A stretch of DNA of 30,968 nt, from IMG/VR virus record IMGVR_UViG_3300047483_000428; one strand, written 5' to 3'. A model generated the notes under the pieces. It made no database searches and was not told the origin of the DNA. It saw only the letters and a list, made by a program, of their open reading frames with translations. The translations under genes and the position numbers were made by a program. Positions 7,888 through 22,677 of this stretch are shown one piece after another (within the stretch, counting starts at the first letter, position 1; every line of letters begins with the position of its first letter). The DNA is from a virus. Its lineage: Duplodnaviria > Heunggongvirae > Uroviricota > Caudoviricetes.

Positions 7888-7914
7888 ATCTGGTTCCTCT
7901 CTGGATACAGATTA

Positions 7915-7943
7915 TGTATACAGTGATTCGTTCCGAATGTCAA
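7915..7943 (-). promoter_or_regulatory. GANTC-box promoter
   Basis: TTGACA-7-CGAATCA-3-TATACA; box at 7924-7930. Confidence 0.8.
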
Positions 7944-8344
7944 CCATTGAATGCCAGATTAAATGCGGCAGTTTCCTTTTCTTCATAATCTTCGTCAGAT
8001 GAAACATCAAAGCTATATCGAACCGCAGCCTTGATCTGGTCCCCAAACGCATTCACCAATCCATCGGTCCACCGATTAATGATGTCTTCCATTTGAGTTT
8101 CATCGGCTTCATAGATGCTGTAACCGTGGCGGGAACATTTGTCGTCTTGAAGTCCGTAGTAGTCATGAGTTACAGTATCGTATTCAATATCTTCTTGTAA
8201 TAGTGCTACTGCGCCAGACGATTGGCCAATATCGTCTTCTAACTCTTTGTTGCCTTCAAACACAACCATAACAAAGTTATCGGGTTCATCCTCGTTGTCA
8301 CGAAAATAGTTTGTGTGGAAACTCAACTCAAACATATAGCGCAT
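7940..8344 (-). CDS. Acidic hypothetical protein
   Basis: AGGAG RBS before ATG 8344 (track start 8392). Confidence 0.7.
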   Translation of the reverse strand: MRYMFELSFHTNYFRDNEDEPDNFVMVVFEGNKELEDDIGQSSGAVALLQEDIEYDTVTHDYYGLQDDKCSRHGYSIYEADETQMEDIINRWTDGLVNAFGDQIKAAVRYSFDVSSDEDYEEKETAAFNLAFNG

Positions 8345-8366
8345 GGTAGTATCTCCTGTTGTGTAA

Positions 8367-8648
8367 TCAGTTTTGCTTTGACGCAGCATCAAGCAGCGCC
8401 ATCATTGTTTCGCCCATAAACCTTTGACTATCGGCAAGGTCAAGGTTGATCAGTTCAGCGTCATTGCCTTGGATTTGTTTACGGGAGTGTTCAATATCTG
8501 TGGCTAGGACTTCTAGGTCTTCTGCGAGAGTGGGATGCAGATAAGAAACCGCACGAGCAATAGATTGAAGTTCAAATACCGCACTCTGAATACGGCGGTG
8601 AGAGGCGGAAGTATCCCGCCACAGTGCTTCGCGTTTCGCATCCATCAT
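8367..8648 (-). CDS. Hypothetical protein
   Basis: 93-aa helical ORF coupled to the upstream gene. Confidence 0.7.
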   Translation of the reverse strand: MMDAKREALWRDTSASHRRIQSAVFELQSIARAVSYLHPTLAEDLEVLATDIEHSRKQIQGNDAELINLDLADSQRFMGETMMALLDAASKQN

Positions 8649-8806
8649 TCCGCAACCTCTCGCTCTACAACCTCATCACCGTCTTCAAGGTATTCATCAC
8701 CCATATATTCAGAATACGAGCGATACTTTTTGTTGAAAACGACTTTCATTTTTCTGACTACAACTTCAACGTAGCCATGGTCAGACGAGGGGACTAAAAC
8801 TTTCAT
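8645..8806 (-). CDS. 53-aa hypothetical protein (below track cutoff)
   Basis: MKVLVPSSDHGYVEVVVRKMKVVFNKKYRSYSEYMGDEYLEDGDEVVEREVAE; start/stop overlaps at both ends. Confidence 0.6.
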   Translation of the reverse strand: MKVLVPSSDHGYVEVVVRKMKVVFNKKYRSYSEYMGDEYLEDGDEVVEREVAE

Positions 8807-9087
8807 CACAGGGGTCCGTACATAAGTTCGTTACGGGCTTTTTCCCAATCAAATTCTTCAATCGCACGTTCACCAGCGATGGGAGAATATTTACCCCAAG
8901 TAAATACGTAGTAGACTTTCACGTATTCCTCAAGACCTTTCATCTTGGAACGATCACTGGCCCAACCAACCGCACGAGTCACATCGGTAGTGCTACCAAA
9001 CACACCATCATAGTCCATCACGACATAACCAACGAAGTCGGTGGTTTCAGCGATGTTGAGGATTTCACGAGGGAAGGTCATTGGCAT
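8806..9087 (-). CDS. Hypothetical protein
   Basis: AAGGAG RBS; first gene after a GANTC-box promoter. Confidence 0.75.
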   Translation of the reverse strand: MPMTFPREILNIAETTDFVGYVVMDYDGVFGSTTDVTRAVGWASDRSKMKGLEEYVKVYYVFTWGKYSPIAGERAIEEFDWEKARNELMYGPL

Positions 9088-9113
9088 ATCTCCTTGTTGC
9101 CGATTACATAGTA

Positions 9114-9142
9114 TGTGTATCTGATTCGCGGGCGTTTGTCAA
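9114..9142 (-). promoter_or_regulatory. GANTC-box promoter
   Basis: TTGACA-8-CGAATCA-2-TACACA; box at 9122-9128. Confidence 0.75.
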
Positions 9143-9417
9143 GCAGAATATAGAAAAGATTCCAGAGGAATGTATACGCGACCTGGGATTTCCATTCGCT
9201 TCACGCATTCCTCTTGTTCTTCTGTTTCGGGAGCAAACACCAGACTATCAATCATAAAATAACCAGCAGCGCCATCCCAGACGCCACGAAACATCAACCC
9301 ATTTTTGGCTTTCATAATCAGCAATGGCTGATCTTCGTCGTCTGTTTTCGGAAACTCCGAAATAGGACGCATATAGTCCAGATAGTTTATACTCACTTCG
9401 TCCATTTCGTCTCTCAA
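9139..9417 (-). CDS. Hypothetical protein
   Basis: 92 aa, coupled to the upstream gene. Confidence 0.65.
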   Translation of the reverse strand: MRDEMDEVSINYLDYMRPISEFPKTDDEDQPLLIMKAKNGLMFRGVWDGAAGYFMIDSLVFAPETEEQEECVKRMEIPGRVYIPLESFLYSA

Positions 9418-9779
9418 TACATCAGGTAGGTTACAGCTTTGATGTTCGTTTCAGCTTCACCGATTTCAACTGCAACTTTCTTTGCTTCTTCAACCGCTTC
9501 AATGAAGGTAAGAGCATGGACCTTATAAGGAGTCATACGGCCAACAAACTTGACTTCCCAAACAGACTTGGGGACAACGGGTTCTGCTTTTGCTTCTTTG
9601 ACTTCATGCAGAACACTCACGTTCCGACGACCCATGCGGTCCCATGTGTGCGGCATATCGGCTTCAATTGTAGCACAGAACTTGTCAAATGCTTCTTCTG
9701 GGGTAGTAGCTTCAACTTCGAGTTCGACCGACATACCGCCAATAGGGCCATATTCACCGACGACAAGATACTTGGTCAT
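9414..9779 (-). CDS. Hypothetical protein, possibly two small repeated beta-alpha domains
   Basis: AAGGAG RBS; EVEATTPEEAFDK and KVHALTFIEAVEE resemble each other. Confidence 0.7.
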   Translation of the reverse strand: MTKYLVVGEYGPIGGMSVELEVEATTPEEAFDKFCATIEADMPHTWDRMGRRNVSVLHEVKEAKAEPVVPKSVWEVKFVGRMTPYKVHALTFIEAVEEAKKVAVEIGEAETNIKAVTYLMY

Positions 9780-9806
9780 TTCTCTCTCCTTGCTGACTAC
9801 AGATTA

Positions 9807-9835
9807 TGTATACAGTGATTCGTTCAGAATGTCAA
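9807..9835 (-). promoter_or_regulatory. GANTC-box promoter
   Basis: TTGACA-7-CGAATCA-3-TATACA; box at 9816-9822. Confidence 0.8.
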
Positions 9836-10098
9836 GCCCAAGATACTTCAATCCACACATCAACAAACTGTCGGTCTTCACTTTGAGTTGTCACATTGTA
9901 ACCAAGTTCAACAAGTTTTGCGTTCACTTCTGGGTTCTTGAACCGAGCCGAATATCCATGAAAGATACAGTGGTCATAAGGAACACGAATGTTCGTTTTG
10001 CCTTTGGTGGCAGCACTACGAACCATTTCATCAAGTTCCGCCAGAACTTTTTCAAGCGGTGGTCCAGCGAGTTCTTTTGCTTCTTTTGCACTAATCAT
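9832..10098 (-). CDS. Hypothetical protein
   Basis: 88-aa ORF; its stop overlaps the next -35. Confidence 0.7.
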   Translation of the reverse strand: MISAKEAKELAGPPLEKVLAELDEMVRSAATKGKTNIRVPYDHCIFHGYSARFKNPEVNAKLVELGYNVTTQSEDRQFVDVWIEVSWA

Positions 10099-10109
10099 TT
10101 CTTTTCCTT

Positions 10110-10391
10110 TCAGAGAAACATAGAACGTTCAATGGTGACAGGTCCACCCAAGTCTCGCACACGAAACTTTTTGCGAACAGAGTAACCATTTTCTTCGCAG
10201 AAGTTTTTATACCACTGTTCTTCGTCAATACACTGTTCGTTGGCAGCTTCCACGTTGGTGAACGACCACTTGAGTTGCCAGTTGTTGTCTGGGTCAATGC
10301 CGTTGAGACGATAATGTGCCTTGTGTTCTTCTGGCAAATCTTCCAGATATTCAACAACAAAACGATTGACGGTTTCAGTATAGGTATTCAT
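10110..10391 (-). CDS. Hypothetical protein
   Basis: 93 aa with GAGG RBS. Confidence 0.7.
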   Translation of the reverse strand: MNTYTETVNRFVVEYLEDLPEEHKAHYRLNGIDPDNNWQLKWSFTNVEAANEQCIDEEQWYKNFCEENGYSVRKKFRVRDLGGPVTIERSMFL

Positions 10392-10403
10392 TCTGTTTTC
10401 CTC

Positions 10404-10583
10404 TCAACGATCCCAGTTGTTTTCATTCAACCATTCTTGAACAGTCCCCCACACTATCAGATGAGTCAGAACTCCGATGGCGATTGCCCAGTTAGGGAGA
10501 ACAGCAGGGGCAAAAACCCACACAATGCCACCAAGAAAGAAAGGAGCAAGAATAGTCCAGAACATATAAAAAGCAAAGCGCAT
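10404..10583 (-). CDS. 59-aa two-TM membrane protein (below track cutoff)
   Basis: MRFAFYMFWTILAPFFLGGIVWVFAPAVLPNWAIAIGVLTHLIVWGTVQEWLNENNWDR; AAGGAG RBS directly after a promoter. Confidence 0.7.
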   Translation of the reverse strand: MRFAFYMFWTILAPFFLGGIVWVFAPAVLPNWAIAIGVLTHLIVWGTVQEWLNENNWDR

Positions 10584-10612
10584 CTATGTTTCTCCTTAGT
10601 GGCTACAGATTA

Positions 10613-10641
10613 TGTATACAGTGATTCGCCCTCACTGTCAA
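10613..10641 (-). promoter_or_regulatory. GANTC-box promoter
   Basis: TTGACA-7-CGAATCA-3-TATACA; box at 10622-10628. Confidence 0.8.
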
Positions 10642-10643
10642 CA

Positions 10644-10886
10644 TCAAAAGTAGTTGCGTTCCCAGTATTCTTCATTTTCTTTTTCAATGGCGACCCATTC
10701 ATCTATGAGTTCAAGAACAGTGTCGGGCGACACGATGTATGGTTCTTCCCAATCTGGGTCGTTGTGTGATGAATAAACAGAGCGACCGCCATACTGAACA
10801 TGAAAACATTCATTCTCATCTTCATATATACGAACTCCACCCCATTCTTCATAGGTGTTCCAGTTGGCTTCATATACAAGATTCAT
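10644..10886 (-). CDS. Hypothetical protein
   Basis: 80-aa acidic ORF coupled to the upstream gene. Confidence 0.65.
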   Translation of the reverse strand: MNLVYEANWNTYEEWGGVRIYEDENECFHVQYGGRSVYSSHNDPDWEEPYIVSPDTVLELIDEWVAIEKENEEYWERNYF

Positions 10887-11065
10887 GCTTTTATTTTGTA
10901 ACCTTCAGTTTCTATTCCATATTCGGCAAGTTCTTCAAAAGTTTTGATACTTCCGCATTCAACGAGGTCCAACAGACAACTATATTCTCGGTATCCTTCC
11001 CTTGAAATATAATCATTCTTTTGTTCTTCCAAAATCTGAAGAAGATTGGCTTTGCTGTCAGTCAT
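10883..11065 (-). CDS. Hypothetical protein
   Basis: 60 aa, GGGAG RBS after a promoter. Confidence 0.65.
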   Translation of the reverse strand: MTDSKANLLQILEEQKNDYISREGYREYSCLLDLVECGSIKTFEELAEYGIETEGYKIKA

Positions 11066-11090
11066 GATTATCTCCCTTTGTTACTTTACA

Positions 11091-11119
11091 CTTATAAGAT
11101 GATTCGTATCAAAAGTCAA
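11091..11119 (-). promoter_or_regulatory. GANTC-box promoter
   Basis: TTGACT-7-CGAATCA-3-TATAAG; box at 11100-11106. Confidence 0.7.
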
Positions 11120-11121
11120 AT

Positions 11122-11147
11122 AAAAAAGGCGACCGAAGCCGCCTTTT
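11122..11147 (-). terminator. Intrinsic terminator ending the nadV transcript
   Basis: Minus strand AAAAGGCGGC-TTCG-GTCGCCTTTTTT (cUUCGg loop plus U-tract). Confidence 0.85.
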
Positions 11148-11150
11148 CTG

Positions 11151-11342
11151 TTATTTTGTTAGCAATTCAAATACGTCATCTGGTAGAACACCGTTGTGTT
11201 TTCCTAACAGTGACACAGTTTTGACCGCAGCAAGTTTCTTGTTACGTTCATCATTTGCTTTCCATACAGCAGCCATCCAAGTAACATACTCTTTTGACGA
11301 AGTATCAAACAGGTCTTTTGGGATTGGAGGAAAATCACTCAT
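11151..11342 (-). CDS. Hypothetical protein downstream of nadV
   Basis: 63 aa, overlaps the nadV stop. Confidence 0.6.
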   Translation of the reverse strand: MSDFPPIPKDLFDTSSKEYVTWMAAVWKANDERNKKLAAVKTVSLLGKHNGVLPDDVFELLTK

Positions 11343-12753
11343 AGCGAGACACCATTTCAGTTTCAGGGTTCACAACCGCACGTTCACGGATTGCTTCAAA
11401 CGTATCTTCAAGAAGAAGGTCACCGTTTTCATATACAACCCGAAGAACTTTGTCTTCTTCACGAGCGTTCTTTTCTTCTACGGTTCGGAACCCGCAGCTT
11501 CCAATTCCACATTCGTGAACCAGTTCAAGGCGACCTTTCTTAGAAAGTTTACCTTTATCAGTGATTGGGTCTTTGTAAACATCAACCCAAACCCCATTCA
11601 CAAGTGCAGCAGAACACTTCATCGCAAACTTCTGGTCATCGCGTTGTGGAGCGCCAAGTAGAGCGCCACCCATACCAAATGCAACGTTGTCGGCACAGAA
11701 ACCATTTGCTTTCAGGCTTTCAAGAATAGCTTTGACACTATCCGAATTGATGCCATCACCTTGAATGATACGAACATGATTTAGAAGTTTGTAACCTTTT
11801 GCGTTTACAGTTGAACCAAAAGTTTTGTCCAACAGTTTTGCAACTTTTGTCACAACTTCAACTGGGTCACCAGAGTCGGGACGGACAACAAGAGTTGCGC
11901 CAGACTTGATTACTTCTTCGCGAAGTTCACCACCCCATAGATTTTCAACAGCGTTGAAAATATCATAGCTGTCAGAAACAACAGCAAGGATTGACCCAGG
12001 TTTAGCGAACTGTTTCAGCATATTTTTGTATGCTTTGACTTCGTTTTCGCGACCCCAAGAAGTAATGGTGCTATGTTCAGCAGCAGGAATAGAGAACCCT
12101 GCCATTGGCATTTTGTAGTAGCGTTTTGCACCAACTACAGCAGCAATAGTGTCAGTCCCCATAAAGCTGACCAAGTGAGCCATGCCGCCAAGAGTGGCAG
12201 ACTCATGCGAAGATGTTCCTCGCGCACCGAAGTCGTGTAGTTTGAAGTTGAGTCCAGCAAGATCGCCGCCAGTTTCAACCATGAACTTCTGAATGATTTT
12301 CTTGATTTCACGGCTGGTTGTGGCAACAGTGGTTGGATACCAGATTGCACGAAGCAATGCAGTTTCCAAGTAGGTGGTCAACCAGAAACACTTTGGATCG
12401 GTGTTTTCAACAGTAACCATTGCGTTGTGAACAGGAATCACAGTCCCTTCGGGCGCAGCTTTGATGCGAATAGGAAGTTTCCCGCCAAGTTCCTTGACGA
12501 TGTATTCCCAACCTTCACGATTGAATGGTTCCCCATGGCCAGTCCAGATTTCTTCTGCTTCATCCACATCTGCCATCGTGATTGGTTCAAGCAGATACTC
12601 TTTGATGAACGCTTGTAGTCCGAAGAACACAAGTTCATTGTATTTTCCGCCACGGCTTTCAATGTAGCTGAATACAGTTTCTGTATTTTCAGGGTATTGA
12701 ACGAACATTGACGCTTTGTAGCTGTCGGTATTTAGTAGTAGATTGCTTTTCAT
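11335..12753 (-). CDS. nadV: Nicotinamide phosphoribosyltransferase (Nampt)
   Basis: TDSYKASM, LHDFGARG, GTDT, SIPAAEHSTITSWG, VSDSYD, RPDSGDP, IIQGDG, FGMGG, KDPITDKGKLSKKG. Confidence 0.95.
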   Translation of the reverse strand: MKSNLLLNTDSYKASMFVQYPENTETVFSYIESRGGKYNELVFFGLQAFIKEYLLEPITMADVDEAEEIWTGHGEPFNREGWEYIVKELGGKLPIRIKAAPEGTVIPVHNAMVTVENTDPKCFWLTTYLETALLRAIWYPTTVATTSREIKKIIQKFMVETGGDLAGLNFKLHDFGARGTSSHESATLGGMAHLVSFMGTDTIAAVVGAKRYYKMPMAGFSIPAAEHSTITSWGRENEVKAYKNMLKQFAKPGSILAVVSDSYDIFNAVENLWGGELREEVIKSGATLVVRPDSGDPVEVVTKVAKLLDKTFGSTVNAKGYKLLNHVRIIQGDGINSDSVKAILESLKANGFCADNVAFGMGGALLGAPQRDDQKFAMKCSAALVNGVWVDVYKDPITDKGKLSKKGRLELVHECGIGSCGFRTVEEKNAREEDKVLRVVYENGDLLLEDTFEAIRERAVVNPETEMVSRYE

Positions 12754-12798
12754 AATAGAACTCCTCTATTGTTAGATTGCCAAACTCTCTGTTTGGAC
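12751..12798 (-). promoter_or_regulatory. Two-hairpin 5' leader of nadV
   Basis: CCAAAC-AGAGA-GTTTGG, then AATAGAG-GAG-TTCTATT abutting the ATG. Confidence 0.6.
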
Positions 12799-12802
12799 TT
12801 GA

Positions 12803-12833
12803 TGACATTACCACGTCATTGTGATAATGTCAA
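12803..12833 (-). promoter_or_regulatory. nadV promoter overlapped by a 12-bp-arm inverted repeat
   Basis: TTGACA-17-TAATGT; plus strand TGACATTACCAC-gtcatt-GTGATAATGTCA. Confidence 0.7.
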
Positions 12834-12837
12834 TAGG

Positions 12838-13149
12838 TTATGCAGCGGCTGGTCTGGATTCTTGCCATTCTTTTGTCCACCTTGGCAATTCACGATACCC
12901 AACAGGCCAATCATTTAGCCCAATATCAGTTAGTTTGCCGCAGCATGGACACTTGAATGATACGGCTGGTTCTTTTGTAAATATACCCCACCCCTCACCA
13001 GTTCCCTGATAATAACGAAGGTCATCGAACTCAAGTTCAAGCAATGCTTCGCATCCATTTTCGCCATTGCCCCATCCAGTGCATCGATGTTGCAGTGACC
13101 AAGTATTTTTTCCGTTTTTTCCCGCTTCAAGAATCTTCATTTTGCTCAC
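12838..13149 (-). CDS. Zn-ribbon-like small protein between nadM and nadV
   Basis: C...CEALL and CPCCG motifs; GTG start overlapping the nadM stop. Confidence 0.65.
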   Translation of the reverse strand: MSKMKILEAGKNGKNTWSLQHRCTGWGNGENGCEALLELEFDDLRYYQGTGEGWGIFTKEPAVSFKCPCCGKLTDIGLNDWPVGYRELPRWTKEWQESRPAAA

Positions 13150-14177
13150 CCAATGTTGATAAAGTTGTCGATGATGTGGAAGTGATCTTCAAACATCTTT
13201 TCTTGCTTCACGTCTTTGAACGGAACCCAGAACGCTTTTTCGGCATCATCCGAACCTTTCACTTTCGGCAGTTCACCAACGCCCAAATCAATGTGAAATG
13301 CTTGGGTAATGGTGCGACCACGAGACGAACGATTAGGAGCATCAAAAGTCTTGGAACCCTTGATAGAACCTTTCAGCACTGGGACAGGAACCTTGATTTT
13401 GGTTTCTTCTTTCAGTTCACGAATGGCACCATCCAGCATAGTCTCATCTTGGTTCAGGAAACCGCCAGGGAGCGCCCATTGGCCCTTGCCAGGCATGTCA
13501 CCACGCTTGACCAGTAGGATGTGTCCAGACTGCACTACAACGGCGTCTACGGTCATAAAAGTGGGCGGGAAAGGTGCAGCCTTCCATGCTTCTTTATACT
13601 TCTTGACCATGTTGTATTCTTGCTCAATAACTTTCCACTGAGCAGATGCAGATAGAAAAATGTCAAGCATCCTGCTTCTAGCAGCATCAGGCATCAAAGT
13701 TTTGAGATTCTCTAGCGTGTTACTATTAACTTCAAACAAAGATTTACGAATGTCAGTTGCGTTGATACCACCAACATCATCAACTTCAATATGATTCTTC
13801 CAACGTGGAAAGATGTTCAGGTAGTAGCTAGTGCTGTCTTTTGAATGGCCAATCAGACCAACATCTTGTGCATTCGGGACAGTAGCATCAACAATCTTTT
13901 GAATGGCGTTGACCCATTTGTTGTCGTCATATGGGTAATCTGACACAGGAACGACCTTCACACGAGTCGTGCGTTCAGTCTTACCTGGCGGATACACGGC
14001 TTCAATCATAGCCTTGCGTTCTTGGAATGTAAATGGATTTCGGATATTACGAGCAGCGAAGCTGGAACCTACGACTACAACAACTTCATGTGCTTGTTCA
14101 AGTGCAGCATCAATAACTGCTTTGTGTCCATTGTGAAACGGCTGGAACCGACCGATAAAAACGAGTGCGTCTCGCAT
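13146..14177 (-). CDS. nadM: Bifunctional NMN adenylyltransferase / ADP-ribose pyrophosphatase (NadM-Nudix)
   Basis: GRFQPFHNGH (HxGH), RNPF, NATDIR; Nudix box GGFLNQDETMLDGAIRELKEET; FEDH. Confidence 0.95.
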   Translation of the reverse strand: MRDALVFIGRFQPFHNGHKAVIDAALEQAHEVVVVVGSSFAARNIRNPFTFQERKAMIEAVYPPGKTERTTRVKVVPVSDYPYDDNKWVNAIQKIVDATVPNAQDVGLIGHSKDSTSYYLNIFPRWKNHIEVDDVGGINATDIRKSLFEVNSNTLENLKTLMPDAARSRMLDIFLSASAQWKVIEQEYNMVKKYKEAWKAAPFPPTFMTVDAVVVQSGHILLVKRGDMPGKGQWALPGGFLNQDETMLDGAIRELKEETKIKVPVPVLKGSIKGSKTFDAPNRSSRGRTITQAFHIDLGVGELPKVKGSDDAEKAFWVPFKDVKQEKMFEDHFHIIDNFINIG

Positions 14178-14224
14178 TGCAAAAACTCCTTTTGCTGTTA
14201 TGTGAAGGACTCTCTGTCCTTCAC
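14175..14224 (-). promoter_or_regulatory. Two-hairpin 5' leader of nadM
   Basis: GTGAAGGAC-AGAGA-GTCCTTCAC, then GCAAAAG-GAG-TTTTTGC ending 1 nt before the ATG. Confidence 0.6.
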
Positions 14225-14227
14225 TAT

Positions 14228-14258
14228 TATTTATACTTTATTTTCAAATATTTGTCAA
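14228..14258 (-). promoter_or_regulatory. nadM promoter; its -10 lies within a TATAAATA element
   Basis: TTGACA-17-TATAAA; TATAAATA at 14228-14235. Confidence 0.65.
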
Positions 14259-14261
14259 GCA

Positions 14262-15272
14262 TCATTCGTCATATTCAAACTCTTTTTCACGAGCGTTCAT
14301 TACATCCGTAGAAATCTTGTTGAGTAGACGATACTCTGCATATTCTTCTGACTGTGAACCTTGGTGCATAACAGGCATCCAAATCTTACGAGTTGCTTCC
14401 ATAAAGCTATTGACCATCTTACCAAGAAGTGCTTCGCGCATCAGTTCATACGCACCTTCTTTGTTTCCAGAAATAAACATTTCAAGAATAGGGTCAGAGA
14501 AGTTTACAATGTCTGCAAACCCACCACCAGCATAACCACTGCCAAATGCATGACCAAACGTATCTGACAGAATGTGGTCACGGCTTCCCTCAAAGAAATA
14601 CTGACGCATAAACAAGTCGTTTAGAATGTCACGCTGTTTTTGTGCGGTTTCATCATCGGCTTTGATGATGTCATTCACAGAGCCGAGTCGTGGCGATTTT
14701 TTATTTGCACAAAACTCCATATAGTCAGGAATCAATGTTGCAAGTTTTGCGTAGGTAATGTTCTTGAAATAGTATTGGTCAGTTTCCCACCCTTCTGGGA
14801 TTTCTGCATCTTTACGCTTATACCAATCAAACGTCCATTCATTCCACAGACGATCAACTACATCTTTACGAATCATAGTAAAGAAGACTTGTCTGTATTT
14901 TGGTTGACCTTCATATCCACGAAGTGGATTGTTCACACGAAGGCGTTTTTCATGAACAACTTCAAAGAAAGTGTCAATGTCAAAGCCTTCACGTTTTACA
15001 GCGATGTCATGATATTGATTTTCGCCAACTTCAAGTTCAATGAGGTTTTTGCGAATCCCTTCAACAATCAAGTCAAGAGCGACACCACTGCAATCTTCGC
15101 CCGCACCATAGTCATTGTATTTCGCACGAAACGGAATAATGACAGGATTATATAGTGCCGTAGAATAGCAAAAGCTATCTCGATACGATTCCACGATGGG
15201 GAATACGTATACTTCTTCACCAGAAATGATCGGTAGACTCGTTAGACCACAAGTTGCGTTCCAGCTTCCCAT
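14262..15272 (-). CDS. Hypothetical protein, 336 aa
   Basis: Long ORF with AAGGA RBS; N-terminal MGSWNATCGLTSLPI and YNDYG motifs; function not recognised. Confidence 0.85.
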   Translation of the reverse strand: MGSWNATCGLTSLPIISGEEVYVFPIVESYRDSFCYSTALYNPVIIPFRAKYNDYGAGEDCSGVALDLIVEGIRKNLIELEVGENQYHDIAVKREGFDIDTFFEVVHEKRLRVNNPLRGYEGQPKYRQVFFTMIRKDVVDRLWNEWTFDWYKRKDAEIPEGWETDQYYFKNITYAKLATLIPDYMEFCANKKSPRLGSVNDIIKADDETAQKQRDILNDLFMRQYFFEGSRDHILSDTFGHAFGSGYAGGGFADIVNFSDPILEMFISGNKEGAYELMREALLGKMVNSFMEATRKIWMPVMHQGSQSEEYAEYRLLNKISTDVMNAREKEFEYDE

Positions 15273-15283
15273 TGTGTATTCCT

Positions 15284-15859: not shown

Positions 15860-16373
15860 TTTTCAGTTCCTTGCAGTTGCCATACAAATCAAAGATGGCA
15901 ACCACATCAAACCCTTCATCAATTTCAGGCTTCACGTAAGTATCCATCATACGATTGATAATATCAATCGGAATAGTCTTGCCAGGCCGACCAGCGAGGC
16001 GTTTCTGCCATTCGGCATAATCATCATCAGTAGCGGGCGGTTCAATGCACTCACACTCAACCCGATAACCAGCTTGTTTCATGCGATTGATGACCTTGCG
16101 CCGCTTACCGACACCAAGATTGGTTTGGTCCCAAATGATGGTGAGCTTGTCGCGAATGGCAACATCCAACCACTCGTTCATTTGCTTAGTGGCTTTGTCA
16201 ATATACTTGTCAAACGCGAAGTCATACGACCAGCCCATAGCGGCACCCCATTCTTCAATGAGGTTGTCTGTGCTGTAAACAAAAGCATCAGGCTCCATTG
16301 CAGCAAGCGATTGAACGCGAGTGCTCTTGCCGCTGGCAGGATAGCCAACCATGACAACACAGACAGGTTTCAT
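15846..16373 (-). CDS. P-loop kinase, AAA_33 / T4 PNK kinase-like
   Basis: GYPASGKST, STD, IWDQTNL...RRK, RLAGR. Confidence 0.8.
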   Translation of the reverse strand: MKPVCVVMVGYPASGKSTRVQSLAAMEPDAFVYSTDNLIEEWGAAMGWSYDFAFDKYIDKATKQMNEWLDVAIRDKLTIIWDQTNLGVGKRRKVINRMKQAGYRVECECIEPPATDDDYAEWQKRLAGRPGKTIPIDIINRMMDTYVKPEIDEGFDVVAIFDLYGNCKELKNAMV

Positions 16374-16570
16374 CGAATCGTCTCCATTACGTTTCCGCTT
16401 ACACGATAATATACGCTATATTCTTCGGTTTTGCAAGACCAAAAATCTTCATATTTGGTCAAAGCCTCATTTTCATTTTCAGCCATCACGATGCGAATGT
16501 CCTGAAACTCTTTGGGGTCGCACATATAATCAGTGCGATACACAGTGCCTTTGACCAAATACGGAATCAT
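16370..16570 (-). CDS. Hypothetical protein
   Basis: 66 aa, ATGA coupling. Confidence 0.6.
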   Translation of the reverse strand: MIPYLVKGTVYRTDYMCDPKEFQDIRIVMAENENEALTKYEDFWSCKTEEYSVYYRVSGNVMETIR

Positions 16571-16815
16571 AGTGCAGTTTCTTTCATATAACGAGTTGCG
16601 ATTTCAAATGCTTCATCCAGCGTAAAGCGAGTAGAGGCAATAAACTCTGGTGTTCGGCTGGAAGGCATAGCCTCAAAGATACGGTGAAGTCCTTTATCCA
16701 AAACAGTTGTTTCGAACACTTTCACACACCATTTATCTTGCCCACGCTTTTCAATGGTGACATCATCGCCAAGGTCAAACCGAGTTGCCAGTTTTAGCAT
16801 ATCATTTGGAGTCAT
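16567..16815 (-). CDS. Hypothetical protein
   Basis: 82 aa, coupled to neighbours. Confidence 0.65.
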   Translation of the reverse strand: MTPNDMLKLATRFDLGDDVTIEKRGQDKWCVKVFETTVLDKGLHRIFEAMPSSRTPEFIASTRFTLDEAFEIATRYMKETAL

Positions 16816-17038
16816 TTTCTACCCACTTTCCAGTAAGAATACCAAACGGACCAGCATACCAATAAGTAAACAGAACACTTTCGCTTTCGCTAAGTTCTGT
16901 TATCTTGCTGAAATACGGCTGGTCCAGATTGTTGTGTCGCCAAGGAGTTTGTGACGACCAATCATCTGACCAAAAAAACTTGGTGATACGTTTCTTTGAT
17001 TTCAGTTGAAACAGTTCGGTTGCCATCATTTCCCCCAA
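16802..17038 (-). CDS. Hypothetical protein
   Basis: About 75-78 aa; start uncertain. Confidence 0.5.
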   Translation of the reverse strand: MGEMMATELFQLKSKKRITKFFWSDDWSSQTPWRHNNLDQPYFSKITELSESESVLFTYWYAGPFGILTGKWVENDSK

Positions 17039-17394
17039 TGTTCAATGAAGTTGTTCATGTATTCATAGATGTTTTCCGCCCCAACAGGGTTCTTGGAATG
17101 AACCATAAACGAAAAGTTTTCTGGAAGTTCTTCAATCCCATCCATCACCATTTCACTGATGCGTTGTGCGATTTCATAACCAGTCCGTTCATTTTCACCA
17201 AGGTCATGGTCAAAACTGATCATCACTGGCATACCAAAAGTGAGAATGATATCCTCAACTTCATACCAGTTGCGGGCAATAACCCAATCATGAACTTTAT
17301 ACATATATTGTTCTGTGAGCGATTTCGCCCAAGTCACATCACTTGGAACTCTCTCATCGTCAATGAACAGATTATAACCCATATTATTCTCCAT
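17026..17394 (-). CDS. Stand-alone receiver-like protein (cyclic-phosphate-processing receiver family)
   Basis: LFIDDER, ISFDHDLG, TGYE, VHSKNPVGAENI motifs. Confidence 0.75.
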   Translation of the reverse strand: MENNMGYNLFIDDERVPSDVTWAKSLTEQYMYKVHDWVIARNWYEVEDIILTFGMPVMISFDHDLGENERTGYEIAQRISEMVMDGIEELPENFSFMVHSKNPVGAENIYEYMNNFIEHWGK

Positions 17395-17641
17395 ATCTCA
17401 GTATGAAAGCAGCATAGTCTGATTCGCTTTGAAAGTCAAGCCAAAATCGTTTCTCTTTTTCATTGAACGTGCATCCGTGTGGTTCAAGTTCTTTATTCAA
17501 AAACTCTATGGAAAAACCATCGTCTCTCGTGTATCCAGTTTCTGGATTGGAAGAATACGTATCTTCCAGATAGTTCATAAAGTTCATCCAATAGACGGGA
17601 CACACGTATAACGTATTTCCAAGGTCAACTCTAATGGTCAT
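17384..17641 (-). CDS. Hypothetical protein
   Basis: 85 aa ending DFQSESDYAAFILRYG. Confidence 0.65.
   Translation of the reverse strand: MTIRVDLGNTLYVCPVYWMNFMNYLEDTYSSNPETGYTRDDGFSIEFLNKELEPHGCTFNEKEKRFWLDFQSESDYAAFILRYGE
17411..17439 (-). promoter_or_regulatory. GANTC-box promoter embedded in a coding sequence
   Basis: TTGACT-7-CGAATCA-3-TATGCT; box at 17420-17426; -10 is 17 nt above the receiver-like gene ATG. Confidence 0.65.
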
Positions 17642-17993
17642 TTGTGTTCACCGAAACAATATGCCACTCGCCCCATTCATCATTCAATGTTTTTTCTTTA
17701 TATCGGCAATATGTGGCGTTCACTGTCAGTTCCACATCATCAACATACGCATTTTTCACTTCAATTCTACATTCACTAAACCGAATCTCATGCGCCAGCG
17801 GAATACCAAGAATAAGATACAAAGAAACAATCCATAATGCCATAACCACTAACAAGTTAGTTGTTCGTTGCAATGCGTAAACGAATACCAGAACGCTAAT
17901 ACCACACAGTGCAATAAAAAACCACAATGCTGGCTCACTTACATGAGACGTTCCGAAAATGAGTTCGCCAAGATAGGTAAGAAAATCAATCAT
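17631..17993 (-). CDS. Membrane protein
   Basis: Two or three hydrophobic segments in the N-terminal half. Confidence 0.7.
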   Translation of the reverse strand: MIDFLTYLGELIFGTSHVSEPALWFFIALCGISVLVFVYALQRTTNLLVVMALWIVSLYLILGIPLAHEIRFSECRIEVKNAYVDDVELTVNATYCRYKEKTLNDEWGEWHIVSVNTNDH

Positions 17994-18127
17994 TTTGGTC
18001 CATAAATAGTTGAAAAAGTTTCAGCCGCCCAATGTTTGGCAAACAACTTGTCCCAATACACAAAGTCTTTGCTTTGGACATTATCTTTTGCCCAAGGATT
18101 AGTGACTGCAATACTAAATCGAATCAT
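17990..18127 (-). CDS. 45-aa hypothetical protein (below track cutoff)
   Basis: MIRFSIAVTNPWAKDNVQSKDFVYWDKLFAKHWAAETFSTIYGPK; ATGA overlaps at both ends. Confidence 0.55.
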   Translation of the reverse strand: MIRFSIAVTNPWAKDNVQSKDFVYWDKLFAKHWAAETFSTIYGPK

Positions 18128-18474
18128 GGTTTCTTCCATAGTGTTGGTCCAAAGATGCCCCTATCTTCCACATAGCAATAGCTTGGAACATAGTATTCAA
18201 TGAACCTGTCGCTCACATCTACTTTGAAAATACTTGCCCGATCTTCTGGCTTATCGCCATGATAGATGACTCGGATTGCAATATCTCTATTTGTAAGTCC
18301 GCTTTCCCATGTAGTTTTATCGTCAGACAACATACTCTGTATGTTATGTCCAAACCAAACATCCTTGAAGTTTTGAATACATGGTTTCGGAGTGTTATAT
18401 TCTTTCTGGTATACGGTGCCAGCACCAAAAGCCAATGCTGCGATACCAACGCCAAGGATAAGTTGCTTGATCAT
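18124..18474 (-). CDS. Exported or membrane-anchored hypothetical protein
   Basis: N-terminal hydrophobic segment; ATGA coupling. Confidence 0.7.
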   Translation of the reverse strand: MIKQLILGVGIAALAFGAGTVYQKEYNTPKPCIQNFKDVWFGHNIQSMLSDDKTTWESGLTNRDIAIRVIYHGDKPEDRASIFKVDVSDRFIEYYVPSYCYVEDRGIFGPTLWKKP

Positions 18475-18710
18475 TCTTTATACTTCTCGTCAGTTGGCAG
18501 CATTTCAGTTTCGCAAGATACTGAAAACTGGTTGGTTTCAAACACTTTCAAATCAAATAGTTTTGATTCTCGTTCTGGGTCAGCATATGCAGCTTGAATA
18601 TCAGCCATTATAACTTGGCTAAGACGCTCACATTCACCTTGTGTTTGGCCTTCGTATCCCATAGAGAATACGACTGCACCAGCATACCATAGAGTTACCC
18701 AGAATGTCAT
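18471..18710 (-). CDS. Hypothetical protein with N-terminal hydrophobic segment and two Cys
   Basis: 79 aa, AAGGA RBS. Confidence 0.65.
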   Translation of the reverse strand: MTFWVTLWYAGAVVFSMGYEGQTQGECERLSQVIMADIQAAYADPERESKLFDLKVFETNQFSVSCETEMLPTDEKYKE

Positions 18711-18711
18711 G

Positions 18712-18897
18712 TCATTTCCTTTTGAATGGTTTAGGCATTGTTATTTCAATGAGTTCGTCAGTGATTTCCTTGATACGAACCTTTACACTTTCGTCACCGT
18801 TGCCAAGTTTTGACAACAGAACTTGCCGCTCACGATACAAATCACCACGCTTTGACCCAATCCACAGACCAGGTGCGACTTCATATGGATCGTTCAT
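18712..18897 (-). CDS. Hypothetical protein
   Basis: Start MNDPYEV at 18897 coupled to the upstream stop (track start 18942). Confidence 0.6.
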   Translation of the reverse strand: MNDPYEVAPGLWIGSKRGDLYRERQVLLSKLGNGDESVKVRIKEITDELIEITMPKPFKRK

Positions 18898-19055
18898 TCT
18901 AACCCCAACATCAAACGAGCAGCAGGAATACATTGGGACCAAAGTTCGTGTGGCAAGTTTTCGCCATATATATCTTTTTTTAGTCCCATCTTTTGGGCCG
19001 CAATCATACGGGCAAGAGGTTCTACTTTATCTTCAAGCCAGATACGACCAAACAT
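18894..19055 (-). CDS. 53-aa hypothetical protein (below track cutoff)
   Basis: MFGRIWLEDKVEPLARMIAAQKMGLKKDIYGENLPHELWSQCIPAARLMLGLE; coupled on both sides. Confidence 0.6.
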   Translation of the reverse strand: MFGRIWLEDKVEPLARMIAAQKMGLKKDIYGENLPHELWSQCIPAARLMLGLE

Positions 19056-19411
19056 TACTTTTCCACTTCTGGTTTTGAAATGACAGGTTCTACGGCAATC
19101 TTTTCGGAAATGTCCGCTACATATTCTTTTCTGGATTCTTCGTATGCCTTCAGAAAATCAAGGCGAACACCTTCAGAAAGTTCACTTGGAACCAATGACA
19201 CATTGCTACCGTAACATCCGCGACCATAACATGGCTCATCTTTCCACACTGGATATCCATTTTTGAGAATGGTCACTCCATCTGTTGCTACCGTGTAACC
19301 GTGTGCAGCCATATATGGGTTAAGTTCGGCTCCCCATAGTTGTGGATAAGGTTTGTCATCTATACAGGCAGATAGAAGAAGAACAAGTAGCAGTGCTTTT
19401 TTCATATCCAC
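19055..19411 (-). CDS. Lipoprotein
   Basis: MKKALLLVLLLSA-C lipobox. Confidence 0.75.
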   Translation of the reverse strand: MDMKKALLLVLLLSACIDDKPYPQLWGAELNPYMAAHGYTVATDGVTILKNGYPVWKDEPCYGRGCYGSNVSLVPSELSEGVRLDFLKAYEESRKEYVADISEKIAVEPVISKPEVEK

Positions 19412-19605
19412 CCACTCCTGTTGCGTTCTTCATCTGTAAACTGACCACCCATACGGTCAGGGTTCAGTCGCCAGCCCATTTCACTATTGCTTTCTTCCAG
19501 CGCACTGACACGCTTTTGAAGTTGGCGAACTGCCATTTGCAAATGTAATGCATACACCATGAGTTCTTCGTGGCTCATTTTTTCAACATCGGGAGTGTTC
19601 ATCAT
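19402..19605 (-). CDS. Coiled-coil hypothetical protein
   Basis: 67 aa, heptad pattern. Confidence 0.6.
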   Translation of the reverse strand: MMNTPDVEKMSHEELMVYALHLQMAVRQLQKRVSALEESNSEMGWRLNPDRMGGQFTDEERNRSGWI

Positions 19606-19793
19606 ACTTCTCCATCCAGAGTTTTGACGCCGCGCCGTTTCAGTTCACGAAGAATCATAAACTCAGCAGCAGCTTGATCAACCGCAGAATCAATCGCCAT
19701 CAACTGTTTTGATTGAAGAACATCAAGAGTTTCAAAAAGGGAGTCATTGTCAAAACGACGAAGCAGGAAAGAACGGAAGAACAGTTTCAGCAT
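19602..19793 (-). CDS. Hypothetical protein
   Basis: 63 aa, coupled to neighbours. Confidence 0.55.
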   Translation of the reverse strand: MLKLFFRSFLLRRFDNDSLFETLDVLQSKQLMAIDSAVDQAAAEFMILRELKRRGVKTLDGEV

Positions 19794-19999
19794 TCTACAA
19801 TCTCCACAATGTTAGCGTCATGACCAAGAGCATTACCATTCAAGTCCCAGAACAAATCATTATCGGTCCATCCATAGGCGCAGATGACAGAATCAATCCA
19901 ACCATCACAACCAGCAGGAATCAAATGAATAGTCCACTCACTGCCATCGGAAAGACGAACAACTTCTTGGCGGCGGGCGGCATCGGTGAAGTCAGTCAT
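19787..19999 (-). CDS. Hypothetical protein
   Basis: 70 aa, GAGGG RBS after a promoter. Confidence 0.65.
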   Translation of the reverse strand: MTDFTDAARRQEVVRLSDGSEWTIHLIPAGCDGWIDSVICAYGWTDNDLFWDLNGNALGHDANIVEIVEC

Positions 20000-20025
20000 A
20001 TCGTTTCCCTCTTGGCTACAGGATA

Positions 20026-20054
20026 TGTATACAGTGATTCGTCCTGAATGTCAA
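20026..20054 (-). promoter_or_regulatory. GANTC-box promoter
   Basis: TTGACA-7-CGAATCA-3-TATACA; box at 20035-20041. Confidence 0.8.
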
Positions 20055-20061
20055 GACGAAT

Positions 20062-20253
20062 TTACTGTTCTGCCACCACTTCAAAATCATTCATCGTCAT
20101 ATTAGACTTGAAATCACGGTAACGAGAATGACTATTGAACAACACGCCAATCTCAACTGTGTGTTTGTATGGATGCGCCTTATGGCCACTACCCCGACCA
20201 TTCGTGGTAATAGTATAGAGCAATCCATTTTTCTTGTAGCGAAAGAGTGTCAT
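20062..20253 (-). CDS. Hypothetical protein
   Basis: Start MTLFRYKKNG at 20253; the track start 20346 falls in the promoter. Confidence 0.6.
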   Translation of the reverse strand: MTLFRYKKNGLLYTITTNGRGSGHKAHPYKHTVEIGVLFNSHSRYRDFKSNMTMNDFEVVAEQ

Positions 20254-20317
20254 TTTACGACCTTGTATTTGAAGACATACGGACCTTTGTCTATTTGGCT
20301 TCTTTGTTGTTACTCTA

Positions 20318-20346
20318 TTCTTATAGTGATTCGGAGAGAATGTCAA
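20318..20346 (-). promoter_or_regulatory. GANTC-box promoter
   Basis: TTGACA-7-CGAATCA, then TATAAG (15-bp spacer) or TAAGAA (17 bp); box at 20327-20333. Confidence 0.65.
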
Positions 20347-20726
20347 TCCTCTCCGAACTGGTCTTTCAACCTTTCATATAATGTTCTGTCGTTTTCTTCT
20401 TTTTGAATACGCTTGCGTTCTTCATCCCTCAACCGAAACTCGTATTCAACATCGGTTTCATAACGCTCACCATATAGGACATAAGAAGGGCCGCAAGAAC
20501 AATCGTGATAGCAACCGCAATCGCGCCTTTCTTCAAATCCCATCTTTTGGTATCGGTCGCGATGTTCCGTCTGAAGACATACCAGTTCGTTGATAAGATT
20601 TTTCAGGGAACTCGTGGGATAAAGAGTATGATGGTAATACCCATAGTCAAGGTATTCTGTGGTGCTACCATGATACGTCTTTACCGTAGCAGTGGCACCA
20701 ACAGGAACACGAATCATCTTTTTCAT
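20343..20726 (-). CDS. Hypothetical protein, likely paralog of 20726-21118
   Basis: R-x-ETD-x-E and YERLKDQFG C-terminus. Confidence 0.75.
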   Translation of the reverse strand: MKKMIRVPVGATATVKTYHGSTTEYLDYGYYHHTLYPTSSLKNLINELVCLQTEHRDRYQKMGFEERRDCGCYHDCSCGPSYVLYGERYETDVEYEFRLRDEERKRIQKEENDRTLYERLKDQFGED

Positions 20727-21118
20727 TACAGTTCACCAAACTTTTCTTTCAAACGCAGAAACTCAACGTATTCCGCATCTTTTTTCAGTTTCTTTTTTTC
20801 GGCGGCAGCTTTACGTTTGGCGGCAGCATCTTCTTTCCGTTTGGCTTCGGCTTTTTCACGAGCAGCTTTTTCTTTGTCGGTTTCAGTCCGATCAAAGTAA
20901 TACGTGATTTTCAGTTCGTAGTCATCATCGTAATAACCACCACGAACAGTCGTCATATCAAACGTGCCTTCGTCAACCATACCTTTGGCACGGGCTTTAT
21001 CCACCACCAAATCTATGTTGGCTTTGATTTCAGCAGCAGTGCCTTCAAAGTCGTAGCGGCTTACTTCAAACTCGTCACGAACCAACCATTCGCCTTCAAC
21101 ATTACGAGCCATACCCAT
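20726..21118 (-). CDS. Hypothetical protein with Lys/Ala-rich helix
   Basis: RTETDKE...EFLRLKEKFG. Confidence 0.75.
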   Translation of the reverse strand: MGMARNVEGEWLVRDEFEVSRYDFEGTAAEIKANIDLVVDKARAKGMVDEGTFDMTTVRGGYYDDDYELKITYYFDRTETDKEKAAREKAEAKRKEDAAAKRKAAAEKKKLKKDAEYVEFLRLKEKFGEL

Positions 21119-21129
21119 TTGGTTTCCTT

Positions 21130-21492
21130 TCAGAGATTCAGTTCAGCGCGTTCTTCAGCAGTCAACTTTGCTAACGCATTCTTGCGAATTTGACGTTTAC
21201 GTTCACGTTCACGCGCTTCGTTTTCCTTGGATTCCAAAGTCCAGTCCATTTCAGTCAAAGTGGAGTGGCTTTTCTCCGTATATTGGAGAGACAGAACAAA
21301 ACGATTTTCGTGATCATCCCGATCAACCACCAAAAACTCACCATTACGAACTTCAATCTCGTAGTTCATGTTGGTTGCGCGTTCCAGAGTAGTCATCAGA
21401 AAAGTTGGATATTCCGCCTTGGACTGTTCCAACAGTTCTTCTGCTTTTTTAGCGTATCGGGCATTTCTCTCTGCTTTGGTTTCGCGGGCCAT
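21130..21492 (-). CDS. Hypothetical protein
   Basis: 120 aa after a GANTC-box promoter. Confidence 0.75.
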   Translation of the reverse strand: MARETKAERNARYAKKAEELLEQSKAEYPTFLMTTLERATNMNYEIEVRNGEFLVVDRDDHENRFVLSLQYTEKSHSTLTEMDWTLESKENEARERERKRQIRKNALAKLTAEERAELNL

Positions 21493-21519
21493 GATCTTCT
21501 CTCTTTTGCTTACAGGTTA

Positions 21520-21548
21520 TGTATAAGCTGATTCGCAACAGATGTCAA
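21520..21548 (-). promoter_or_regulatory. GANTC-box promoter
   Basis: TTGACA-7-CGAATCA-3-TATACA; box at 21529-21535. Confidence 0.8.
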
Positions 21549-21553
21549 GGAGT

Positions 21554-22138
21554 TTATGCCAAGATTTTGTCAGCCACTTCGTTCATATCGTGCAGGGCAA
21601 GAATACGGTCATCACTTTCGTTTTTGTTGTGACCGTGTTCAACCAAGAAGGTGGTAAGACCAAGGTCAGCGCCAACTAGGGCGTTTTCCCATTTGTCTTC
21701 AACCCAGTATTTTACACCTTCGTATTTCTTGATGTATTCGGCAAGGACTTCATCTTTGTCTGCACCAGTATCAAGGCACACTAGTTCTTTCAGCCATCCT
21801 TTTCCAAACACTTCTTCAAGGTTCCGCTGACGGGCATGTTTTGCTGCGGGGTCAAGACTGAGCGAGGTGATTACCACAAACTGATATCCTGCTTCTACCA
21901 ACCGAGCAATACCAGCACGAGCACCACGAAATGCTTCTAATTCACCCATCCAAGCACTTTCATTGAACTGGCGAACCAACTGTTTCCCCAAATCACGGGG
22001 AATACCGAACTGTTTGTCAATCGCATATTGATTTGCATCAACATGCACATATCCATGTTGGACCATCCACTTTTGGAAGGATTTCTCCCAATCTAGAATC
22101 ACACCGTCACAGTCGGTGAAGATTACTTTTTCTGACAT
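21554..22138 (-). CDS. HAD-family 5'(3')-deoxyribonucleotidase-like protein
   Basis: TDCDGVILDW, VITS, KDE, WVEDKWEN. Confidence 0.8.
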   Translation of the reverse strand: MSEKVIFTDCDGVILDWEKSFQKWMVQHGYVHVDANQYAIDKQFGIPRDLGKQLVRQFNESAWMGELEAFRGARAGIARLVEAGYQFVVITSLSLDPAAKHARQRNLEEVFGKGWLKELVCLDTGADKDEVLAEYIKKYEGVKYWVEDKWENALVGADLGLTTFLVEHGHNKNESDDRILALHDMNEVADKILA

Positions 22139-22163
22139 TCATTTTCCTTTTCTCTTCATTATT

Positions 22164-22192
22164 CTTATACTACCATTCGATCTGAATGTCAA
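22164..22192 (-). promoter_or_regulatory. Promoter with degenerate box (GANTC lost)
   Basis: TTGACA-7-CGAATGG-3-TATAAG. Confidence 0.7.
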
Positions 22193-22199
22193 GAAGTTT

Positions 22200-22376
22200 T
22201 TAGAGATACCCTAAAACCATTCCATCATCTTCGTCAAGAATCTCAACCAGACACTTTCCAGTTCCAGTTGGGTCTTCTTTGATACGATATTCATTCGGCT
22301 CCATCAGCCGACATGTTTCTTCCGCAGCAGCACGATTTTTGAAAACCGTGTGAGGATGATTGAGCAATGCTTTCAT
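22200..22376 (-). CDS. Hypothetical protein
   Basis: Start MKALLNHPH at 22376 with GAGG RBS (track start 22466). Confidence 0.6.
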   Translation of the reverse strand: MKALLNHPHTVFKNRAAAEETCRLMEPNEYRIKEDPTGTGKCLVEILDEDDGMVLGYL

Positions 22377-22377
22377 A

Positions 22378-22623
22378 TCAGACCTCCGACAGAGTGTAGT
22401 AGGTGGAGACAGAAGTTCCAGCAGCAGTCGGAACCAGCATCGGGCGAAGTTCCGAGAACACAGCATGGCCGAAACCTTTGACTGTTTTCCCTTTCATCAG
22501 AAGGCGGGCTTTGAACTGGGTGCGTTTGGTGTAGGGGTCGGTTTCAAGAGCGTAGCGAAACTCACCACCGTTTTTGAGAACTTCAACAGCTTTGATAGCG
22601 CGAGTAGAAAGTGCAGCGGTCAT
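22378..22623 (-). CDS. Hypothetical protein
   Basis: 81 aa after a promoter, GAGGG RBS. Confidence 0.7.
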   Translation of the reverse strand: MTAALSTRAIKAVEVLKNGGEFRYALETDPYTKRTQFKARLLMKGKTVKGFGHAVFSELRPMLVPTAAGTSVSTYYTLSEV

Positions 22624-22648
22624 GTCATTCCCTCTCTGTTACAGTATA

Positions 22649-22677
22649 TGTATAGAGTGATTCGGTGGGATTGTCAA
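22649..22677 (-). promoter_or_regulatory. GANTC-box promoter
   Basis: TTGACA-7-CGAATCA-3-TATACA; box at 22658-22664. Confidence 0.8.

Follow-up and report, generated by a model that had tools for sequence, protein, structure and literature searches.

Which protein, if any, reads a seven-base box that recurs between the -35 and -10 hexamers of a whole set of phage promoters? The question is raised by a stretch of 30,968 nucleotides (the window) from the IMG/VR virus record IMGVR_UViG_3300047483_000428, a member of the Caudoviricetes, in which a preliminary description had noticed ten minus-strand promoters carrying the box CGAATCA (TGATTCG on the plus strand) at a fixed position. It had proposed that early transcription of the phage is wired to the methyltransferase CcrM and the sigma70 cofactor GcrA of an alphaproteobacterial host, or to a phage-encoded GcrA-like or MotA-like activator, and had named a motif count, a host prediction and searches for GcrA and CcrM homologs as ways to find out. 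The window is the minus strand of G000:C1:22532-53499, part of a viral contig of 102,689 bp (G000; 41% GC), whose CheckV completeness of 27% implies a genome of about 365-380 kb and thus an uncultured jumbo phage.

The ten coordinates and the spacing to a minus-strand TTGACA or TTGACT were found exactly as the preliminary description had them: each of the 10 plus-strand copies of TGATTCG in the window lies inside a minus-strand promoter. Against background, TGATTCG occurs 16 times in the window (expected 5.85 +/- 2.56) and the strict pattern TTGAC-N8-CGAATCA 9 times (expected 0.03), a count that 0 of 100 shuffles reached. The site at 9122 has one additional base between the -35 hexamer and the box, and the six copies of TGATTCG in the other orientation lie within coding sequence and are without a -35 hexamer. 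The promoters have the form TTGAC(A/T)-N7-CGAATCA-N3-TATAnn-N6-GTA, in which the -35 pentamer TTGAC is invariant, the sixth base is A or T and the box occupies -22 to -16. The earlier consensus therefore holds overall, except that the downstream GTA is strong and not invariant (T 0.91, A 0.85). About 20 nt past the boxed promoters there is a Shine-Dalgarno sequence and then the ATG of a small open reading frame (ORF) of 59-175 aa. On the whole G000 contig 18 boxed promoters were counted, all on the gene strand, with 0 on the other strand and 0 in a reversed-pattern control.

More than 115 contigs of IMG/VR carry the pattern, nearly always in a promoter-like setting with the same downstream architecture. 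Five of the phages concerned are G001 (155 kb, completeness 42%, GC 35%, 16 boxed promoters), G002 (342 kb, 92%, GC 39%, 11-12 boxed promoters), G003 (113 kb, 31%, 7 boxed promoters), G004 (78 kb, 22%, 3 boxed promoters) and G005 (113 kb, 31%, GC 40%, 9 boxed promoters); in all of them the boxes are confined to one strand and the reversed-pattern control gives 0. Their completeness implies genomes of about 356-369 kb, and because these sizes agree, the five appear to belong, together with G000, to one jumbo clade. A second boxed lineage consists of T4-like phages of about 150 kb, namely G736 (145 kb, 95% complete, 4 boxes) and G737, whose major capsid protein shares 74% identity with its counterpart in Methylophilales phage Melnitz and 70% with the one in Pelagibacter phage Mosig. 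The boxed relatives span 33-42% GC, and there is no detectable nucleotide similarity among their genomes.

In 2015 the consensus of GcrA was given as TGATTCG, more broadly YGAKTCK, which confirms a preference that the preliminary description had stated with reservation, and the methylation sites of the GcrA regulon were found to be narrowly centred near -20 (Haakonsen, 2015, PMC4647560). A crystal structure of the DNA-binding domain of GcrA bound to m6A-TGATTCG shows contacts at each of the 7 positions (Wu, 2018, PMC5887438). In the activation complex studied by cryo-electron microscopy the spacer of the Caulobacter crescentus promoter PcsM has Gm6AATC at positions -22 to -18, and the preference for -20 +/- 1 is explained sterically, GcrA and RNA polymerase lying on opposite faces of the DNA (Wu, 2023, PMC9976885).

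The phage box is the exact GcrA consensus TGATTCG (complement CGAATCA), placed like that of PcsM in the spacer between -35 and -10, with the coding-strand GAATC at about -21 to -17 when the start is taken to be 7 nt after the -10 hexamer. In 53 exact boxed promoters from four clade genomes the 7 box positions are invariant (~14 bits) and the neighbouring positions hold 0.05-0.6 bits; of the earlier statement that N7 varies freely around an invariant box, the second half stands, and the first has to be softened, N7 showing a weak T-T-C...A preference. Variation points in the same direction. Of 365 promoter-like sites, 160 have the exact box and 17 a box with one mismatch; 10 of the latter read CGAATCG and 5 AGAATCA, whose complements CGATTCG and TGATTCT both fall inside YGAKTCK, as do two AGAATCG double variants. 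The one-mismatch variants, which are distinct loci on several contigs but phylogenetically non-independent, are confined in 15 of 17 cases to 3 classes where 21 are possible (p = 2e-11), and 15 of the 16 at the edge positions alone fit YGAKTCK (p = 8e-7). The distance from the box to the -10 hexamer is 3 nt both with a 16-nt spacer (21 cases) and with a 17-nt spacer (197 cases), and an inverted box never occurs among the promoter-like sites examined. Such a fixed distance with a single orientation fits a factor that is tethered to sigma domain 2, like GcrA, and the single asymmetric site, likewise a feature of GcrA promoters, implies a monomeric reader.

In every respect that is visible in the sequence, the boxed promoters thus resemble GcrA-box promoters of the upstream class, with which they also have the dependence on the primary sigma factor and the tolerated variants of the 7-mer in common. 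We propose that they are of the GcrA-box type and are probably read by host GcrA, a reading to which we give a probability of roughly 0.55; the overall case is suggestive, not proven. They differ from their Caulobacter counterparts in that the setting is a phage, in that the optimal site recurs throughout a whole promoter class, always at the same position and in the same orientation, and in that the hexamers are AT-rich (TTGACA and TATAnn). That the reader is host GcrA, and the host hence alphaproteobacterial, is what we infer from this likeness, as are methylation of the box, the position of the transcription start and the early expression of the boxed genes; that the phage senses the cell cycle of its host, as the preliminary description had imagined, is pure conjecture.

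On this proposal the sigma70 holoenzyme of the host would read TTGACA together with a weak -10 hexamer (TATAAA, TATACA or TATAAC, usually without a T at -7), and a monomeric cofactor of the GcrA type, acting on sigma70 domain 2, would bind [A/C]GAATC[A/G], which ends 3 nt short of the -10 hexamer, from the side of the helix facing away from RNA polymerase. By the Caulobacter precedent, binding would prefer the box in its N6-adenine-methylated form made by CcrM. The contact with the cofactor would raise both polymerase binding and open-complex formation and in this way compensate for the weak -10 hexamer, the outcome being a promoter class for small early genes that is separate from the ordinary unboxed sigma70 promoters.

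Such unboxed promoters, TTGACA-N17-TATAnT, form a second class on the G000 contig, several of them before tRNA genes and nadM. In the window nadM and nadV (14258 (-) and 12803-12832) have unboxed promoters with longer leaders, unlike the boxed small-gene units. The two classes have the same -35 hexamer and spacer length and differ at -7, where 7 of 53 boxed promoters have a T as compared with 46 of 82 unboxed ones (p = 3e-7). T at -7 and A at -11 are normally the best-conserved bases of a -10 hexamer. Because the -7 T is mostly missing, a generic sigma70 scan of the window recovers only 2 of the 10 boxed promoters. A second TAnnnT hexamer was considered as the true -10 and rejected, since the -35 hexamer would then be 23 nt away.

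The existence of two classes, the boxed one with a weak -10 hexamer, would also suit a different factor whose specificity coincides with that of GcrA. Such a factor could belong to a host outside the Alphaproteobacteria, or it could be a small sigma70 cofactor of the phage itself, either injected or expressed from unboxed promoters. In that case the boxed class would be delayed-early or middle, with a logic like that of MotA and AsiA of T4. We regard this as possible, though on the doubtful side, for it needs the 7-mer, its position and its degeneracy all to coincide with GcrA. Three small proteins of 45, 77 and 86 aa speak in its favor: they are common to G736 and G002 and absent from the box-less phages HTVC008M, Melnitz, Mosig and PA5oct. 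They may be promoter factors encoded by the phages, but none has a recognisable DNA-binding domain. That an undescribed sigma70 cofactor, from the phage or from a non-alphaproteobacterial marine host, converged on the 7-bp site and defines a new class across aquatic T4-like and jumbo phages we consider unlikely.

The middle promoters of T4 are similar in that a phage class is defined by an extra box that is read with host sigma70. The MotA box, however, replaces the -35 hexamer at about -30 and needs AsiA, whereas the phage class has an intact TTGACA with the box at about -19, and with that hexamer in place the architecture is not that of a MotA promoter. Six-frame Pfam searches of ten phage genomes and fragments revealed no phage GcrA, a hidden Markov model built from three GcrA proteins of metagenome-assembled genomes (MAGs) found no GcrA among 27,289 reading frames (best E = 0.68), and searches for the sigma70 domains r2 and r4 were likewise negative. 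All this holds for the 92%- and 95%-complete genomes as well. A reader of known kind would therefore come from the host. In addition, the box is common to two phage lineages with few common genes, which favors a host-encoded reader and counts against a phage factor. What was proposed in the preliminary description thus survives in part: the box matches the GcrA site in sequence, position and degeneracy, whereas no phage-encoded GcrA was found in the ten genomes and fragments, and the promoter architecture is not MotA-like. To our knowledge, the boxes of LexA, IHF and other known factors do not fit the phage box.

Several observations weigh against reading by host GcrA. The box is absent from 8 cultured relatives, namely PA5oct, Phosso, Atu_ph07, Vibrio phage 2.275.O, SCTP-2, HTVC008M, Melnitz and Mosig, although Atu_ph07 (Agrobacterium) and Phosso (Sinorhizobium) infect GcrA-bearing hosts; cultured alphaproteobacterial phages of this family without the box favor a different factor. 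Three short contigs of a phage of the clade (L255, L286 and L287), with four boxed promoters and 58-70% protein identity to the clade, were binned in a MAG of the gammaproteobacterium Glaciecola that is without GcrA, and another boxed contig was binned in a MAG of an order that is mostly without GcrA (present in 1 of 26 genomes). These binnings hint at hosts lacking GcrA, as a different factor would allow; both concern short contigs and could be artefacts of base composition. The pattern TTGAC-N8-CGAATCA was found 47 times in 401 alphaproteobacterial genomes as compared with 15 in the control (3.1-fold), and 79 times in 301 gammaproteobacterial genomes as compared with 40 (2.0-fold), a difference in enrichment that is not significant (p = 0.23). 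The 92%-complete G002 has no PF01555 methyltransferase. Where enzymes of this kind do occur in the clade, they score far below the CcrM equivalog cut-off of 830 bits (G000 85, G001 98, beta-class enzyme of G005 74), and the family of the G000 enzyme is also found in phages of E. coli, Klebsiella, cyanobacteria and mycobacteria. A phage methyltransferase as CcrM analogue was rejected on the strength of these scores and of the spread of the family over phages of many phyla. Since the phage enzymes are not CcrM orthologues and G002 is without one, methylation of GANTC directed by the phage is unsupported, and host CcrM would be needed.

The methyltransferase of G000 (G000:C1 ~91.6-93.1 kb, L125:1408-2859, outside the window) is a beta-class DNA methyltransferase of the DPPY type, 483 aa long, in which an insert of about 280 aa contains a cluster of Cys residues. 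Its best PDB match is CcrM, over the catalytic motifs only, and a 43% identical copy is present in G736. G005 has a Dam-family methyltransferase (L165:623-1441; 247 bits, above the cut-off) beside two PF01555 enzymes, and the methyltransferase cargo is different in each clade member examined.

Of 16 interrupted palindromes, GANTC shows the strongest depletion in G001 and in G002 (0.63 in G002); it ranks second in G005 and third in G000. In G000 it was dismissed as a special signal, being mild beside the avoidance of GTAC, CCGG, GATC, TTAA and TCGA; the depletion is informative only because it is also seen in G001 and G002, where those five sites are not avoided. In G000 the avoidance of short palindromes is strong, with 7 GTAC as compared with 299 expected (0.02), 15 CCGG as compared with 125, and ratios of 0.28-0.36 for TTAA, GATC and TCGA. 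G005 avoids the same five palindromes like G000, and G001 and G002 do not, which suggests that restriction pressure or DNA protection differs inside one clade.

When bacterial genomes were scanned with the promoter pattern, 122 scattered single matches in many phyla came up, from which no host lineage emerges. Only 4 of the 122 have the phage-like downstream part, and the matches represent normal sigma70 promoters in which the box arose by chance. CtrA boxes (TTAA-N7-TTAA), sought as a host marker, showed no enrichment, and an exact-protein look-up and a protein atlas gave no usable taxonomy for the host. Nucleotide searches of cultured phages with the region and with single promoters returned nothing useful.

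The nearest cultured relative of G000 is the Pseudomonas jumbo phage PA5oct, with a clamp loader 56% identical to that of G000; the next-best matches of this protein are in Sinorhizobium phage Phosso, Ralstonia phage RsoM2USA and Agrobacterium phage Atu_ph07. PA5oct has a GC content of 33% and its Pseudomonas host one of about 66%, so that GC content is little guide to the host in this phage family. As proposed for G000, PA5oct has promoters served by the polymerase of the host, in its case TTGAC / TATAATA promoters dependent on host RNA polymerase (Lood, 2020, PMC7318152) and without the box.

Is a dedicated reader needed at all? The spacer box could be contacted directly by polymerase or act through DNA shape, or the repeated units could be mobile cassettes homogenised by recombination, resembling the PeSLs (promoter-early stem-loop cassettes) of T4-like phages. 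With these the window has in common that small variable ORFs, all on one strand, are preceded by a repeated early promoter of the sigma70 type and by a Shine-Dalgarno sequence ahead of the start codon, the leader measuring about 20 nt. Four copies in the window, moreover, have about 26 identical bases 3' of the box, which would suit such cassettes. We nevertheless hold this explanation to be improbable. In genomes that span 33-42% GC and lack detectable nucleotide similarity, the 7-mer stays invariant while the flanking positions vary, and the unboxed promoters have the same -35 hexamer and spacer length without it. Contacts of polymerase in the spacer are not known to be as sequence-specific as this box. 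The PeSLs differ further in their stem-loop: only 1 of the 10 window promoters, the one at 11119, has a terminator-like stem-loop upstream (a strong hairpin at 11149-11122), although some relatives have them. In the parts of the two PeSL papers available to us, the consensus is given as -35 and -10, with no spacer box mentioned (Arbiol, 2010, PMC2839356; Comeau, 2014, PMC4122927).

Lying inside the core promoter, the box could also be an operator, where a bound repressor would block polymerase and shut off the early promoters late in infection. This we consider very improbable; the base-exact distance to the -10 hexamer, the single orientation and the link to a weak -10 hexamer fit an activating cofactor better, and no candidate repressor was identified.

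If the promoters are indeed read by host GcrA, widespread uncultured T4-like and jumbo phages of aquatic habitats would drive their early genes via the epigenetic cell-cycle module CcrM/GcrA of Alphaproteobacteria. This would be the first known phage promoter class that depends on a methylation-reading sigma cofactor. We found no description of such a class in the published literature, the nearest being the GcrA homologue of phage phiCbK and, in Brevundimonas, a prophage-like operon that depends on GcrA. The box would then serve as a host predictor, from sequence only, for phages that now have none, and mechanistic studies would gain naturally occurring GcrA boxes in optimal position; it would also suggest that the success of an infection would hinge on methylation of the injected DNA and on the cell-cycle stage of the host. 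If the reader is not GcrA, a new sigma70 cofactor awaits discovery.

Table 1. Boxed promoters of the window with the genes they are predicted to drive, a promoter with a decayed box, and the three small proteins common to G736 and G002.
Feature	Position	Strand	Elements and matches	Gene driven
Boxed promoter	7908..7943	-	-35 TTGACA 7943-7938, box CGAATCA 7930-7924, -10 TATACA 7920-7915, inferred start G 7908	175-aa ORF 7887-7360
Boxed promoter, 8-nt variant	9107..9142	-	TTGACA 9142-9137, box 9128-9122, -10 TACACA 9119-9114	93-aa ORF 9087-8806
Boxed promoter	9800..9835	-	TTGACA-N7-CGAATCA-ctg-TATACA	121-aa ORF 9779-9414
Boxed promoter	10606..10641	-		59-aa membrane-like ORF 10583-10404
Boxed promoter	11084..11119	-	TTGACT, -10 TATAAG	60-aa ORF 11065-10883
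Boxed promoter	17404..17439	-	TTGACT, -10 TATGCT	~120-aa ORF ending 17026
Boxed promoter	20019..20054	-		70-aa ORF 19999-19787
Boxed promoter, atypical -10	20311..20346	-	cta-TAAGAA, or TATAAG one base closer; longer leader (~58 nt)	
Boxed promoter	21513..21548	-		120-aa ORF 21492-21130
Boxed promoter	22642..22677	-		81-aa ORF 22623-22378
Decayed-box promoter	22157..22192	-	CGAATGG at same position, GANTC lost; -10 TATAAG	194-aa ORF 22138-21554
86-aa protein	G736 L312:16541-16798		No Pfam; matches only phrog_23239 (unknown function)	
45-aa protein	G736 L312:16411-16545		No Pfam, no PHROG	
77-aa protein	G736 L313:15074-15304		No Pfam, no PHROG	

The G000 contig further encodes replication genes of the T4 superfamily, the NAD-salvage pair NadV/NadM, PhoH, an RNA ligase, a Lon-like protease and 37 tRNAs. 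The protease is a Lon-like ATP-dependent enzyme (phrog_4871) at 1-1659 (-) of the window, truncated at its first base. Lon degrades CcrM in Caulobacter, according to the abstract of a preprint; that the phage protease is relevant in this respect, should the host be alphaproteobacterial, is pure speculation. Finally, a CGAATCA outside the window that belongs to no promoter, at G000:C1:6744, lies inside the tRNA-Cys gene 6676-6764, apparently in the T-arm (TTCGAATCA), and tRNA genes therefore add background matches for the motif.

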